Of a DNA stretch of 64,000 nt, positions 6,172-40,968 are shown one piece after another (positions within the stretch are counted from its first letter, which is position 1; every line of letters begins with the position of its first letter). This DNA comes from a bacterium. GTDB taxonomy: Bacteria; Zhuqueibacterota; QNDG01; DSAB01. The notes beneath the pieces were generated by a model, which worked only from the letters and a program-made list of their open reading frames with translations, was not told the DNA's origin and did no database searches. The stretch is taken from positions 18,851-82,850 of the forward strand of contig JAFGDT010000041.1 of NCBI GenBank assembly GCA_016931965.1, in the 5' to 3' direction. Made by a program: the position numbers and the translations under genes.

Positions 6172-7023
6172 TTATTTTTCTTCAGGCCACTCCGTAACTT
6201 GGATATAACACCCTTCGGGATCAGTGATTCCTTTCAAACAGTAAAGACTGCGGTATCTTTTTTCTTCTCTATCTCTTCGATCGGTCACATCAGCCAACCC
6301 TCCCCACGGACACGACAGACAGTGCTCAGGCTGTTTTTGAAAGGATGTTGCCGTTTTCAGGGACACCAACGCCTGATCACGATGATAAGAGACTGTAGAG
6401 CCCTGTTTCACGATCTCTATATTTCTGGGTTTGTGGATGACAATTCTGCCCCGGTCTTCACGGATTTCCCCTTCCATTTCCACCACCATTCTGGATGCAA
6501 ACTGAAACGTCTGCATCATTTTTTCTGAAATACGAACATAAAAAGTATCATCAAAGGATTCAACGCCGATGAATCCTCTTTTAAATACAAGAAGATAGCC
6601 CCGAAGCTTGATATGGGAGGCTTTATGGCAAAGGACCTGTTCGAACCAGGGTTTGATATAATGAATTTGCCCGCCGAACATTCGCCGCTTATAACGGATA
6701 TTTTCCAACCAGTTTTCGAAATCCTCAAGATCTTCCATAAAACGGCTATATTGATCCTCCGTCAACAACAATCTGGGCTGAAGATGAACCTTCTCTTCAA
6801 TGTAATAGGTGCAGCCTTTACAGTTTTTCCCTATATACTGGTATCGATGAATACACCTGTTCCCTTTTTCCATGAGAATACAATGCCATTTAAAATAGAG
6901 ACACCCTTGAGGGTAACAGTTTTTCTCTTTCATGACATGGAAAACCGAAACTTTTCCCTCAAATCGTTTATGGGCTTCCTGACTGCAACGAAAAACATCG
7001 TCTCTTTTATATTGATTAATCAT
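6172..7023 (-). CDS. Hypothetical Cys/His-rich protein
   Basis: 283-aa ORF with clustered Cys at both ends: CYPQGCLYFKWHC, CIHRYQYIGKNCKGC, and C-terminal CLSCPWGG...CLKG...C. It looks like a metal-binding protein. No family recognised. Confidence 0.5.
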   Translation of the reverse strand: MINQYKRDDVFRCSQEAHKRFEGKVSVFHVMKEKNCYPQGCLYFKWHCILMEKGNRCIHRYQYIGKNCKGCTYYIEEKVHLQPRLLLTEDQYSRFMEDLEDFENWLENIRYKRRMFGGQIHYIKPWFEQVLCHKASHIKLRGYLLVFKRGFIGVESFDDTFYVRISEKMMQTFQFASRMVVEMEGEIREDRGRIVIHKPRNIEIVKQGSTVSYHRDQALVSLKTATSFQKQPEHCLSCPWGGLADVTDRRDREEKRYRSLYCLKGITDPEGCYIQVTEWPEEK

Positions 7024-7056
7024 AATGGATTGAACGGCAGTGGATGAGGAGATGTT

Positions 7057-7941
7057 TCACCCATCATTTTTGTGATCTGGAGGATCGCTGATATGGAGTT
7101 TATTTCTTCTCGCTTCCAGCAGATGATTTTCTTCTCCTCTATATTCAGCCACAGTCTGAATGTTCACATGATACTGATTGGCCAGAGCAAAAAGGGGTTC
7201 AATATGATGCTTCCAATGCATATCTCTCAACAAATGATGGTCAATGATGATCGTTGTTACTTTTGTTTTTTCAATCATCCTTTTAATATGGGTTAGCGAT
7301 TTCTTCAGTATCTTTTGTAAATCATCCTTTTTGTGATTGATAGTGAAGAGGCCGTCTAAATAGAGAAACAATGGATTTTGTGATAAAATAAATTCCAACT
7401 GGTCTTCTCGACAGGCTCCTTCGATGTCCGAGCTGAAAAGAAATGATTGATCATCTTCATGAATGGCCATCTGAATGACAAATCCATGGTCTTCTGTTAG
7501 ACCATGAGGTACCGGTGGAGAAAAAATGATCCGTGTATTTTTTAATGATACTGTTTTTTCATCTACATAATGAATCTCTCTGGGTATGCCTTGTATCTTT
7601 TTTAAAAAGGCGAAAGCACGGTTTCTTTGGGAAAGGTTTATCTTCTGGTTTGGATTTTTAAGCAAGAGCAATTTATTGCGATAAAGCTCCCCATTATCGG
7701 GAATAAAATGGCTTAAATGAAAATGGGTGATAACAACAACATCAGCCAAATGAGCAAAAAGGTGAAGCCGTTCTCTCTGTTTTTTGAAAGCCCACTTTTC
7801 AAATGGATGGGGCGGTAGTCCGTATCGATTTTGTACCAGTGTGACACCCGGATCAACCAAAATGTTAAGGTCTCGGGTCTCGATAAAAACAGCCATTGAA
7901 CGGCTGCCCATCGATTCGGCTGCAATGGGTGTAATTTTCAT
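7057..7941 (-). CDS. MBL-fold metallo-hydrolase, archaeal-type UPF0282/COG2248-like
   Basis: N-terminus MKITPIAAESMGSRSMAVFIE..LVDPGV..RYGLPPHP plus ITHFHLSHF matches the COG2248 pattern ESLGVRS ... DPGV ... GLPPHP ... HYHYDH. Confidence 0.55.
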   Translation of the reverse strand: MKITPIAAESMGSRSMAVFIETRDLNILVDPGVTLVQNRYGLPPHPFEKWAFKKQRERLHLFAHLADVVVITHFHLSHFIPDNGELYRNKLLLLKNPNQKINLSQRNRAFAFLKKIQGIPREIHYVDEKTVSLKNTRIIFSPPVPHGLTEDHGFVIQMAIHEDDQSFLFSSDIEGACREDQLEFILSQNPLFLYLDGLFTINHKKDDLQKILKKSLTHIKRMIEKTKVTTIIIDHHLLRDMHWKHHIEPLFALANQYHVNIQTVAEYRGEENHLLEARRNKLHISDPPDHKNDG

Positions 7942-36855: not shown

Positions 36856-37252
36856 AATCAATCGAATCTTTTTCAAACTTTAAAGATAATAAAACAAACG
36901 ACTCAAAGCAAGAAAAAATTCAAGTTTACAATTCATTTTTATCTTCTTTACTCCCAGCAGCACAGCTACAAGACGACTGCGGGTGGCAACCATTTTCTCG
37001 ATATCGGCAAAATGGTCAGTTACTTTTTCTTTCTCGTTCCAGTGTTCTACGTTGGAACGAGAAGAGTACTCCTCTCCACTCAAGTTGATGGCATGCTTGA
37101 AGCAGTGCAATGATTGCCCTGGATTCCCTTGTCCAGGGCAAATAACTATGGGGCTTCTGACCCATAAGACAATACAGCATCAAGTTTTTGAATTTGGGGA
37201 GGATACCTTGTTGATCGTTCATGGGGGCTTTTTGCCGCTGAACGAATTATTT

Positions 37253-37276
37253 GGAGGGCTGAGCCCTCCCTTTTTT
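37253..37276 (+). terminator. Plus-strand intrinsic terminator with no upstream plus-strand gene, so possibly the end of an ncRNA
   Basis: GGAGGGC-tga-GCCCTCC forms a 6-7-bp GC stem, followed by C and then TTTTTT. Confidence 0.45.
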
Positions 37277-37483
37277 ACGCCTAGGGGTATAGGAGCCTGT
37301 CCAAGAACCCCAAAAAAGCGTTATAATATCATAGATTTTTGAATATATAAAGATTTCATATTAATTGTTACCAAAAATATTCCAATTTTTTCTAGTTCTT
37401 AGACAAGCTCCATAGCCCATTGGCGATCAGAACTTGAGTCTGGTGCAACGCTTATTCGTTTAGGCTTGTTTTATAATATTTTA

Positions 37484-38278
37484 TCATTCTGTGTATTTGA
37501 ATATATAACCTTTATGCGAATTTCGTTTTCCGTGCAAACAACTATTGATATGACTGAAATCTAAATTCAAATACCTAGCACATTGTCTTTGTGTAAGCCA
37601 CTCACCTATATATTTTTCATTTTTAAAAACTAGAAAAGATTTAGCTCCGCGTTGAATTGAATGAATCTTTCTATTTTGGGGGTCAGATAAATACTTACGC
37701 ATTTCTTCTGCTGTTTTCTCTCTTTCAGATTCTTTATTATATCGCATTAACATAAATTTTGAATGTTCTTTTGCTTGTTCAGGATTATCTTGGTGAGCTT
37801 TTTTATTTGCTAAAGATTGCATTCGCCTATTTTCTGGATTTTGGAATAACTTTTTCCTTATTTCGGAATTTCTTTTACACCATTCTTCGTCATACTTAAG
37901 ACCATAAGTTCCTTCCCCACCTAAAGTCAGATTGTAACCATTTGTAAAACTATCATAAAATCGGATATATTTTTTTTCTAGTTCACAGAGTTCTTTCCAT
38001 TCTGTAGCTCTGTCAATTATTTCCCAACTGATATTTTTAGAATCATATTTTCTTATTGCATCGTGAAATGGTGTCCTTGAACCCTTTTTTACACTTCGTA
38101 AATGAATTCGGATTCTTTCTTTTAGCGTTGTTATTGTAATACCAATATAGATTTTTCCACTGGGTGAAGTGGCTTTATATACTATTCCATTAATTGATTT
38201 TTTCTTTTCCATAAATTTACTTACAAGCCTAACGATTATTTCTGCGGCGCGCCAAACCGACGGGTGACCATTATTCAT
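37484..38278 (-). CDS. GIY-YIG homing endonuclease of I-TevI/Seg-like architecture: GIY-YIG domain, NUMOD3-like repeats and a NUMOD1-like HTH
   Basis: GIY-YIG core NGIVYKATSPSGKIYIGITITTLKERIRIH...FHDAIRKY...LEKKYIRFYDS..NGYNLTLGGEG. C-terminal tail CARYLNLDFSHINSCLHGKRNSHKGYIFKY matches the ...NG+RK.A.GY.W.Y DNA-binding motif of homing endonucleases. The start may be the internal ATG at 38212 (MEKKK). Confidence 0.75.
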   Translation of the reverse strand: MNNGHPSVWRAAEIIVRLVSKFMEKKKSINGIVYKATSPSGKIYIGITITTLKERIRIHLRSVKKGSRTPFHDAIRKYDSKNISWEIIDRATEWKELCELEKKYIRFYDSFTNGYNLTLGGEGTYGLKYDEEWCKRNSEIRKKLFQNPENRRMQSLANKKAHQDNPEQAKEHSKFMLMRYNKESEREKTAEEMRKYLSDPQNRKIHSIQRGAKSFLVFKNEKYIGEWLTQRQCARYLNLDFSHINSCLHGKRNSHKGYIFKYTE

Positions 38279-38287
38279 TTTCGTGTG

Positions 38288-38307
38288 GCACTGCTTTTAA
38301 GCAGTGC
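38288..38307. repeat. Perfect 20-bp palindrome GCACTGCTT-TT-AAGCAGTGC, 10 bp upstream of the GIY-YIG start codon
   Basis: Read directly from the sequence. A degenerate copy GCATGCTTGAAGCAGTGC lies at 37091..37108, and a related GCTTTTAAAAGC palindrome at 39759..39770. Confidence 0.6.
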
Positions 38308-38405
38308 TTTAATTATTTGTTCATTCAACACGATATTTTACAAATATCACACTGACCAGGGCACCCTGCGAATTGATGCGGTAGTTATGTAAAGTTATTT
38401 GACTA

Positions 38406-39500
38406 TCAATCAAGCAACTCCTTGAATATTTTATAATCATGATCCGAAAGACTGAATTTGGCATTAAGCTTATTCAGCATTTGGCCCGAGTTGAACCAGG
38501 ATATGAATGTATCGACATTGCCGGCAAACCCTCTTGCACATTTGTCAGATATCGTCTGGTAATCCTGAACTTCTGGGAACAATTTTAAAGTCTGATGAGT
38601 TGCAGATGGGAAATCGAAACCTTGCTTCATGTAATACAAAACACTATAAATATGCCGCAGACGAATTTCTAGATGACTTTCAAATGGAATATTGGCAATT
38701 TTTTCTGACGCTGATAAATTTTCAAATGATTGATGATCAAGTCTTTGTGTTTGATGATGGATTATTCTTCTTCTGGGTGTTCTTTCCGGTTTTTCGACCG
38801 CGCCAATTTGTTGTTTTATTTCTTCTCTCTCTGAAATCTCAATGTGAACTTGCTGCAGTGCCTCAGAGAAAGTCTCGTCATCGGTATCTGGAAATTCATT
38901 TCTCAGGTAACCCACTACTTTCTGTTTTACTTCGAATGAAGTTAATTGTTGAATTAGTGCGATGACTTCCCGTTTTTTGTTAAATTTATCGAGCTTGTTT
39001 TTTAAATATTCATTATACCTATTTTCTTCTATACTACTCTTGTTGAAAATACCTATAAAATTTATGCCTTGCTCTGATCCTTTTTCAAAGTCAATTTTTT
39101 CTAACAATATTGGGTCGGTGTGAGGGTTCAATGGTCCATCATAAAAAATTCTAAGATCTGGTCCAATTAAAAACCCGAAATCGGATTTCATTTGCCTCAT
39201 ATAGGATCTCAGTTGTCCTATTACATAATCACGTTTTATATCCTCTGCAGGCCTCTTGACCTCCACGACAATTAGACATTTCCTATCATTACCATAAATA
39301 ATTAAATCCGGACGAAGCGTGCCCTCACGCCCAAGTTGCACTTTCGGTTGTCTTTCTATCTCATTCTTATATTCCCGCCAACCGAGGACCTCAATGGCTC
39401 TAACCACTTGATTTTCAAAATCCCTTTCAGACAAATTTTGCTTGATATTTTCCGATAACAGAAAACAAATCTCATCCCATTTTTCAGAATTACAATTCAT
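38406..39500 (-). CDS. PD-(D/E)xK nuclease-fold protein with an HsdR-N-like N-terminal domain and an unrecognised C-terminal domain of about 240 aa
   Basis: GTLRPDLIIYGNDRKCLIVVEVKRP matches the D...(E/D)xK motif of the N-terminal domain of type I restriction R subunits (PF13588-like). The rest has no match I recognise. The gene is AT-rich like the adjacent GIY-YIG gene. Confidence 0.6.
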   Translation of the reverse strand: MNCNSEKWDEICFLLSENIKQNLSERDFENQVVRAIEVLGWREYKNEIERQPKVQLGREGTLRPDLIIYGNDRKCLIVVEVKRPAEDIKRDYVIGQLRSYMRQMKSDFGFLIGPDLRIFYDGPLNPHTDPILLEKIDFEKGSEQGINFIGIFNKSSIEENRYNEYLKNKLDKFNKKREVIALIQQLTSFEVKQKVVGYLRNEFPDTDDETFSEALQQVHIEISEREEIKQQIGAVEKPERTPRRRIIHHQTQRLDHQSFENLSASEKIANIPFESHLEIRLRHIYSVLYYMKQGFDFPSATHQTLKLFPEVQDYQTISDKCARGFAGNVDTFISWFNSGQMLNKLNAKFSLSDHDYKIFKELLD

Positions 39501-39672
39501 AATTTGCCTCTGATTCTCTCACATAACACAGGTTTATCCACCCTATATGCATTACATATGCTTTTCAAAATAATCTTTGAATTTGAATACAATCATTTCC
39601 TTCAAATCAAGACACATGGAGCCAACTTGCCCCCTTCATCTATTTCTTTGATAGCCATTTTTCTGTTGAAAT

Positions 39673-39970: not shown

Positions 39971-40264
39971 ATGAACACCCATCAGAAAGATAAAATGAAA
40001 AGCAGCGATTATCTCTCAGAAGAAGAACAGCAAGAGAGCAAGCAACAACTGTTTTTCTACAATATATGTCTCATTGCGGGCAGTGTCCTTATCCTATTTT
40101 CTCTCATTTATCTTTTACAACATTTAGGCAACAATTCGGTTTACTGGATTGGATTTTTGGGGTTATTCTGTGCAATTCCTTTCTTCATCATATACGGAAT
40201 CGGCATGAAATCGATCAAAAACAAAACGAATTCAAACCCCAAAAACCAGAAACATAAAGCATAG
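39971..40264 (+). CDS. Small membrane protein (97 aa, two transmembrane segments), hypothetical
   Basis: Acidic N-terminal SEEEQQESKQQ stretch, then two hydrophobic helices and a basic C-tail. Confidence 0.45.
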   Translation: MNTHQKDKMKSSDYLSEEEQQESKQQLFFYNICLIAGSVLILFSLIYLLQHLGNNSVYWIGFLGLFCAIPFFIIYGIGMKSIKNKTNSNPKNQKHKA

Positions 40265-40440: not shown

Positions 40441-40968
40441 ATGGCATTAGTACCCTGCCGAGAATGTCAGAAAAAAATCAGTGAAAACGCCGTAAGCTGT
40501 CCAGAATGTGGAGCCCCTTTTCCCTCGAGAAGAGAATGGAGGGGGCCAGGATTCGAATGGAAATCCCAAAAAACACTGTTCGGTCATCCGCTGATCCATA
40601 TTGCATTTGGTCGAAATGAAAAAGGAAAATTGAGGGTCGCCAAGGGATTCATTGCCATCGGGCAATTTGCCGTCGGTGCGTTTACAGTCGCCCAATTTGG
40701 CATCGGACTCATTTTCGGTTTGGGTCAATTTATTTTTGGCCTGACGGCAGTGGCTCAGATCGCAATTACCGCACTGTTTGGATGCGGCCAGGTTGCCATC
40801 GGATATGTGGCTGTGGGCCAGCTGGTTTTTGGTTACTACGGATTGGCCCAGGTCGGTATTGCCAAATATCTCTGGTCATTTGGAAGAAAAGATCCCGAAG
40901 CCCTGGACTTTTTCAGCCGATTAGGCGAAAAAATTGGATTGTCCCTGGACCAATACTTCAGAAAATAA
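40441..40968 (+). CDS. Zinc-ribbon protein with a repetitive Gly-rich hydrophobic region of about six 11-residue repeats
   Basis: N-terminal CRECQ...x13...CPECG zinc ribbon. Then IAIGQFAVGAF/TVAQFGIGLIF/GLGQFIFGLTA/VAQIAITALFG/CGQVAIGYVAV/GQLVFGYYGLA with period 11. Confidence 0.6.
   Translation: MALVPCRECQKKISENAVSCPECGAPFPSRREWRGPGFEWKSQKTLFGHPLIHIAFGRNEKGKLRVAKGFIAIGQFAVGAFTVAQFGIGLIFGLGQFIFGLTAVAQIAITALFGCGQVAIGYVAVGQLVFGYYGLAQVGIAKYLWSFGRKDPEALDFFSRLGEKIGLSLDQYFRK

Follow-up and report, generated by a model that had tools for sequence, protein, structure and literature searches.

An I-TevI-like GIY-YIG endonuclease gene that probably arrived as an integron cassette and now sits in a decayed, integrase-less cluster

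By the usual account, what maintains homing endonuclease genes is homing, whether they reside in introns, in inteins or at free-standing loci of phages, and the T4 seg and mob genes are known to spread by homing through double-strand-break repair. Homing-type nucleases have also been domesticated against rival mobile DNA, as in the origin-directed nuclease Odn of phage ICP1, where the architecture is kept for cutting foreign DNA and not for the enzyme's own homing. The present study concerns a gene for an I-TevI-like GIY-YIG endonuclease, located on the minus strand beside rpmE in a 64-kb stretch of bacterial DNA (the whole analysed part of contig JAFGDT010000041.1, hereafter the window). Its origin is probably a different one: on the evidence below, the gene is likely to have arrived as an integron cassette instead of by homing, and now to reside in a decayed, integrase-less cluster beside a second nuclease-like cassette. 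In integrons, GTTRRRY core sites and RYYYAAC inverse cores define the cassette boundaries and the ends of the attC sites, with recombination occurring between G and TT (PMC3053210), and Cury et al. proposed clusters of attC sites lacking integrase (CALIN) as a step between integron capture and genome stabilisation (PMC4889954); the cassette and attC definitions used here are those of these two papers. Defence functions and endonucleases abound among integron cassettes (PMC7370490; bioRxiv 10.1101/2024.07.02.601719). HNH endonuclease families rank among the abundant integron-associated genes in metagenomes (PMC7370490), and a class 4-like chromosomal integron of Aeromonas has a GIY-YIG-domain cassette, orf6, mentioned in passing (PMC10609294).

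The unit shared between genomes appears to consist of the endonuclease open reading frame (ORF) and cassette-type ends, beginning at a GTTRRRY crossover and followed by an attC. When the low-GC island around the gene was compared by blastn with the loci fetched for its relatives, similarity to at least 15 of them was confined to 38235..37483, that is, to the ORF and about 20 nt upstream. A core site, GTTAGGC (GTTRRRY; 38227..38233, minus strand), stands at the upstream end and forms the junction to the preceding cassette, the crossover being placed between G38233 and T38232. Homology to locus L254, whose endonuclease is 89% identical in amino acid sequence, starts at 38235, a few bases before this heptamer, and the window gene carries an integron core-site boundary; the GTTAGGC core recurs at equal distance to the ATG in both L254 and L257. 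The core is part of the left arm (CGTTAGGCTTGT, 38223-38234, minus strand) of an inverted repeat that brackets the ORF and whose right arm (ACAAGCCTAAAC, 37458-37469, minus strand) contains the inverse-core-like GCCTAAAC. The bracket is identical in L254, and in L257 (TCGTTAGGTTTT/AAAACCTAACGA) and L258 (GTTATGCAC/GTGCATAAC) the arms differ from those of the window yet pair mutually. The right arm opens what we read as the 5' half of the endonuclease cassette's own attC (37438..37469, minus strand), in which GCCTAAAC, an RYYYAAC box with one extra A, is succeeded by GAATAAGCGTTGCACCAGAC; the L''-like stretch of 20 to 21 nt after GCCTAAAC is common to the attC of L257, with 0 such matches expected by chance. 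The arms were also considered as a repeated extragenic palindrome, a candidate rejected because no other copy of them exists in the window.

The gene that precedes the endonuclease is, to judge by its ends, an integron cassette too. It encodes a protein of 364 amino acids (38406..39500, minus strand; cassette 1) with an N-terminal HsdR_N_2/PDDEXK-like nuclease domain (a weak PF13588 match, 9.9e-6) and weak PDC-S02 matches in PADLOC (about 3e-5), and it belongs to a family with up to 88% identity. Its left boundary is the core-like site GTTATGT (39521..39527, minus strand), with crossover after G39527. Window and locus L263 share 87% DNA identity from 39526 to 38373, starting exactly after the G of GTTATGT; in L263, the 364-aa relative lies between two classical attC sites, of which one ends in the very same heptamer. 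The matching stretch goes on beyond the stop codon as far as the R''-L'' portion of the attC (ACATAAC TACCGCATCAAT), and here the window retains a degenerate attC of cassette 1 (38226..38390, minus strand), whose 5' end has ACATAAC and TACCGCATCAATTCGCAGG and whose 3' end has GTTAGGC. The 5' half of this remnant is homologous to the classical 75-nt attC of L263; both end boxes are kept, the loop having grown by about 100 nt and a further 16 nt having been added ahead of the core site. The 364-aa relative in Desulfatitalea tepidiphila (L267) is likewise followed by an attC (E 1.7e-12). With homology starting at the core-site crossovers in each case, two adjacent same-strand genes each begin at an integron crossover point. 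The array of L263 (1737-12252) also holds RelA_SpoT and T5orf172 cassettes and is then continued on the same strand by an OLD-family ATPase/nuclease and a UvrD helicase (Gabija-like), making it rich in defence genes.

Among relatives of the endonuclease, the cassette context is seen in better preserved form. In L254, the gene is one unit of a tandem array whose repeats of about 187 nt are spaced 961-962 nt apart, run GCMTAAC...GTTAGGC (RYYYAAC...GTTRRRY) and form long hairpins with imperfect pairing; they stand on the flanks of an unrelated peroxiredoxin-like gene as well. Two of these attC-like repeats (1229-1415 and 2190-2377) are closely alike and unusually long; the attC length usually quoted is 57-141 bp. 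Classical attC sites of 57-94 nt are found directly after stop codons in L004, L184 and L263, L184 having five of them together with five same-strand ORFs, and longer attC sites follow stop codons in L255, L257, L258 and L177. A covariance model (R1) built from 4 attC sites recovered 14 more; in L263, L184 and L267, where positions were compared, these lie in short gaps after same-strand ORFs. Both R1 and a second model, R2, were built here from short classical attC only and are blind to long or decayed sites. A relaxed energy scan recovers attC sites in relatives as well; at -12 kcal/mol, its background is roughly one hit in 18 kb. From the attC-separated same-strand ORFs, at least seven distinct contexts of the endonuclease are therefore recognised as cassette arrays (L254, L255, L257, L258, L177, L004, L184). 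One related attC, compared with plasmids by blastn, gave no match. In L258 (943-6668), the endonuclease cassette has attC on both sides and is 3.5 kb from genes for a terminase large subunit and a portal protein, and a phage or prophage may therefore be the carrier of this array. The L004 array ends, on its far side, with a gene for a Xer/IntI-like tyrosine recombinase (6548-7555), which is on the same strand and preceded by an HTH_17 gene.

The enzyme itself is ordinary for its family. The ORF at 37484..38278 (minus strand, 264 codons) is uninterrupted, and from sequence and predicted fold we understand it to encode an intact, modular I-TevI-like GIY-YIG DNA endonuclease, in agreement with the earlier note on this DNA, which had been made from the letters alone. 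The protein scores above the cutoff of TIGR01453, 'group I intron endonuclease' (59.1 bits, cutoff 56.05; residues 32-259), and matches PHROG_314, 'homing endonuclease' (5.8e-28), and the PADLOC entry 'HEase' (2.2e-15); for the endonuclease and its neighbour, PADLOC returned nothing beyond such single-protein matches. In the numbering of the 242-aa protein, the catalytic domain spans about 9-98, a five-helix linker about 109-187 and an I-HmuI/NUMOD-like helix-turn-helix (HTH) module about 190-242. Searching the PDB with a profile of the family alignment, we found the I-TevI catalytic domain (1MK0, 1LN0; E about 1e-8) and the DNA-binding C-terminus of I-HmuI (1U3E residues 97-171; E 1e-7). The same mapping places Y12, Y22, R33, H37, E79 and N94 on I-TevI Y6, Y17, R27, H31, E75 and N90. 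Across 37 aligned sequences, Y12, Y22, G24, T26, R33 and E79 do not vary, and conservation is 90% or more at H37 and N94, bearing out the earlier claim of a complete core with its Arg and Glu. The AlphaFold model (predicted local distance difference test, pLDDT, 88.5) shows an alpha/beta N-terminal domain, a low-confidence loop at 99-106, five linker helices and a small beta/HTH C-terminal domain. Foldseek matched the model best to 1MK0 and 1LN0 (template modelling (TM) score normalised to the target, 0.78-0.81), then to 1U3E, and the N-terminal domain superposes on 1MK0 with a target TM of 0.81 and a root mean square deviation of 2.5 A.

Domain profiles refine this picture. The HTH tail proposed in the earlier note is found as PF22083, I-HmuI_NUMOD-like (2.2e-10, residues 209-239; tail GKRNSHKGYIFKY), a family present in 50 of 50 relatives, while Pfam NUMOD1 matched none of the 50. 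The NUMOD3-like repeats that it had also described did not hold up: PF07460 and PF07453 are absent from the window protein at E<=0.1 and from all 50 relatives at E<=0.01, PF07460 being carried only by the distant relatives P0057-P0067, and the region in question is a linker of predicted helices whose sequence has no Cys4 or Cys2His2 pattern. The Pfam GIY-YIG profile PF01541, suggested as a check, misses the window copy at E<=0.1 and succeeds with 38 of the 50 relatives.

Translation most likely starts at ATG 38212, giving a coding sequence for 242 amino acids (37484..38212, minus strand; TGA stop at 37484-37486), and not at 38278, the start of the 264-codon frame first assumed. Two observations on the relatives argue for this: DNA homology begins about 23 nt upstream of ATG 38212, and all 50 proteins begin a few residues before the GIY motif. 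A 100% identical protein in NCBI (JW824_04175 [bacterium], 'hypothetical protein') also has 242 residues, for which reason the 22 additional in-frame codons (38213..38278, minus strand) are judged to be probably untranslated; they overlap the junction between the cassettes and the last part of the attC remnant before it, and are probably read-through into the upstream junction. Upstream of the gene we recognised no convincing promoter, nor is there a cassette promoter (Pc).

A protein search with the endonuclease gave 52 clusters at 47-89% identity, nearly all of 237-254 aa, compared with at most 33% for GenBank phages and, in IMG/VR, 31% for the top full-length match, at odds with the expectation in the earlier note that such genes are usually phage-borne; plasmid matches cover the catalytic domain only. 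The contexts of close relatives are mutually unrelated and include a peroxiredoxin-like gene, amidohydrolase/rsmE/Omp85, an acetyltransferase with a protein tailed for the type IX secretion system (T9SS), AAA_14 with RecQ, toxin-antitoxin genes with a tyrosine recombinase beside ftsH, and terminase plus portal genes. The dN/dS ratio of the window endonuclease against seven relatives with unsaturated or nearly unsaturated dS is 0.07-0.10, hence the protein has been kept by purifying selection. The GC of some relatives has shifted to 0.41-0.50, a sign that they may have resided in other hosts for a long time.

Several observations weigh against a cassette origin. In the window island, no canonical attC was detected by the energy scan or by R1 and R2 with filters off, and a first scan requiring R''/R' complementarity found nothing. 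The cassette-1 attC remnant folds no better than shuffled sequences (z -1.5). Only the 5' half of the endonuclease attC is present, with a 1-nt insertion in the inverse core and a 3' half that is missing or eroded; no partner arm was found downstream, where the local alignment score is no better than that of shuffles. The long attC sites of L254 score no better than E 0.5-4 with model R2, and four endonuclease contexts (L001, L174, L175, L176) gave no attC. A confirmed integron integrase was found neither in the window nor beside any related array, the L004 recombinase scoring 80.5 bits on the integron-integrase model TIGR02249, whose cutoff is 265.

One alternative is a generic horizontally acquired island, such as a phage or defence-island remnant, in which no integron was involved and the core-site-like heptamers of the window are coincidental. 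Besides the window's want of a detectable canonical attC or integrase, that reading can draw on the 364-aa relatives in defence islands, beside type III restriction-modification genes in L267 or Gabija-like genes in L263, and on the one endonuclease relative near terminase and portal genes. We nevertheless regard it as unlikely: the homology that links both genes to cassettes of clear arrays begins with the first base past the core-site G and reaches into the 5' attC, a coincidence hard to obtain by chance twice in a row. Classical free-standing homing, in which the enzyme would cut an endonuclease-less allele of the rpmE-side intergenic region (or of rpmE or prfA) and spread by double-strand-break repair, would account for the I-TevI/Seg domain architecture, for a shared DNA unit that is little more than the ORF, and for broken copies such as a homing cycle would leave (a premature stop in L175, a diverged C-terminus in L178). 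Yet the gene occurs at rpmE-DUF1385-prfA in 0 of 80 genomes carrying that cluster, and the contexts of close relatives, at least seven, are mutually unrelated, their flanks sharing nothing beyond attC features, which speaks against a conserved homing site at rpmE or prfA, the targets that had been proposed. The boundaries coincide instead with integron core sites, and purifying selection that is strong in divergent hosts is more to be expected of a useful gene than of a purely selfish one; homing is accordingly considered quite improbable. A close relative without the insertion was not found, and with the best flanking DUF1385 relative only 63% identical and synteny lost beyond rpmE, no empty site can be defined.

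It is very hard to credit, finally, that the ORF lies inside an unrecognised self-splicing intron or structured RNA, with the inverted repeat as the stem that loops it out. That the repeat encloses the ORF and its arms co-vary between loci would suit such an arrangement, as would the naming of TIGR01453 after intron endonucleases and the 169-nt hairpin located downstream of the ORF. Yet group I and group II introns gave no Rfam match, RF00028 included, at E<=1 on 34-42 kb even with permissive filters, and no Rfam intron family reached its gathering threshold across the window, where no tRNA genes were found either. There is no split host gene and no exon half on either side of the ORF, which is flanked by an attC remnant on one side and by non-coding DNA on the other; the earlier note had been right on this point. 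The inverted repeat was rejected as an intron or ribozyme stem for lack of Rfam support. Its arms fit the GTTRRRY/RYYYAAC consensus, and in relatives they are part of tandem attC repeats that flank unrelated genes too. Cassette delivery thus stands as the probable explanation, and what had been taken for a lone free-standing insertion is better described by integron cassette boundaries and by relatives in attC-separated arrays.

The location on a bacterial chromosome, as previously noted, and between housekeeping genes is borne out by the surroundings of the cluster. One flank, on the minus strand throughout, consists of carB, carA, prfA, a DUF1385 gene and rpmE; the other, on the plus strand, of a 175-aa zinc-ribbon/membrane ORF (40441-40968) and a trehalose-phosphate synthase/phosphatase fusion. 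Between them, GC is 0.31-0.37 over about 37.25-40.4 kb (0.31 in the endonuclease coding sequence) compared to 0.44 in the window, and this low-GC stretch has three ORFs: the endonuclease, the 364-aa gene and a 97-aa membrane ORF on the opposite strand. No tyrosine recombinase or integrase was present among the ORFs checked within about 10 kb of the cluster. With no integrase nearby and the attC decayed, both cassettes are probably fixed in place. The cluster looks like a fossil CALIN, at the stage of a cluster of attC sites lacking integrase or one step past it; the formal definition (at least two detected attC, no integrase) does not apply, because the window attC are too decayed for the models built here.

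Beyond cassette 1, the segment 39527-40440 (GC 0.33) contains the 97-aa membrane ORF (39971-40264, plus strand; weak DUF3899 match), oriented opposite to both cassettes, and no attC, attI or integrase remnant was recognised in it. The gap of 620 nt between rpmE and the endonuclease (36858-37483) has a GC of 0.39, between that of island and genome, and short overlapping ORFs in different frames without Pfam match; the broken ORFs at 36880-37342 were considered as a disrupted target gene and rejected, no family matching them. Just beyond the endonuclease cassette, an imperfect hairpin of 169 nt, its arms about 36 nt long (37262..37430, minus strand; DNA fold -24.7 kcal/mol, z -4.67), resembles only a plant microRNA family in Rfam, below threshold (MIR2606, E 0.15), and does not share the register of the attC inverse-core box. 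A strong hairpin of terminator type on the plus strand (GGAGGGCTGAGCCCTCC then T6; 37253-37275) has no convincing plus-strand gene upstream; it may end a small transcript or be the relic of another cassette.

The collective evidence suggests the following course of events. In the same-strand attC arrays of relatives, an integron integrase would be able to excise and insert the endonuclease unit, and movement between genomes would proceed by integrase-mediated attC recombination; in the genome studied here, the unit would have come to follow directly upon a second nuclease-like cassette in the low-GC stretch beside rpmE. The enzyme may bind specific DNA through its C-terminal HTH module and cut at a distance through the tethered catalytic domain, in the manner of I-TevI. 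Its substrate would most plausibly be incoming phage or other mobile DNA, as with other homing-type nucleases that are cassette-borne or domesticated, a role that would agree with the wealth of defence genes in integron cassettes and with the defence islands that house relatives of the neighbour. A bolder extension, which we consider speculative and rather unlikely, is that an I-TevI-like subfamily living in cassette arrays across distant bacteria has exchanged homing for integrase mobility, its members serving as nucleases against mobile DNA or as cutters of arrays that lack them, thus favouring their own retention.

Our analysis has importance in suggesting that a homing endonuclease architecture can ride another mobility system, the integron, under purifying selection in many hosts. 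If active, these proteins would extend the defence-rich integron cargo by one more class, that of sequence-specific nucleases, and could be a source of new I-TevI-like specificities. For the window itself, less is gained: the homing endonuclease beside rpmE, seemingly a lone one, is accounted for as part of a fossil two-cassette cluster. An incomplete literature search, which is no proof of novelty, gave no account of a homing-type family of the I-TevI kind that recurs as integron cargo, and the searched supplements to PMC7370490 have none of the family accessions looked for, PF01541 and TIGR01453 included.

Compared with known systems, the window enzyme is closest to I-TevI of the T4 td intron and to the T4 Seg proteins. 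It shares with them the GIY-YIG domain and the catalytic Tyr, Tyr, Arg, His, Glu and Asn, the succession of N-terminal nuclease, flexible linker and C-terminal HTH module, and a size of around 240 aa, and like the Seg proteins it is intron-less. It differs in sequence (about 20% identity to I-TevI), in a linker without zinc finger or Pfam NUMOD3, in the I-HmuI NUMOD-like character of its C-terminal domain and in its location outside a phage genome or intron, the shared unit ending at integron core sites and not at a homing site. With CALIN (PMC4889954) the locus has in common the GTTRRRY-type boundaries, the inverse-core box after the ORF, low GC, the lack of an integrase nearby, accessory or defence-like cargo, and relatives in same-strand ORF arrays split by attC; the difference lies in window attC decayed beyond the reach of the covariance models built here. 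The orf6 cassette (PMC10609294) and the HNH cassettes (PMC7370490) are likewise nuclease genes carried by integrons, a likeness by description, since these reports note the domain only and give no full I-TevI-like architecture, family-wide distribution or catalytic analysis. The endonuclease is thus a known kind of enzyme in a little-documented vehicle, of which the window copy is a decayed example.

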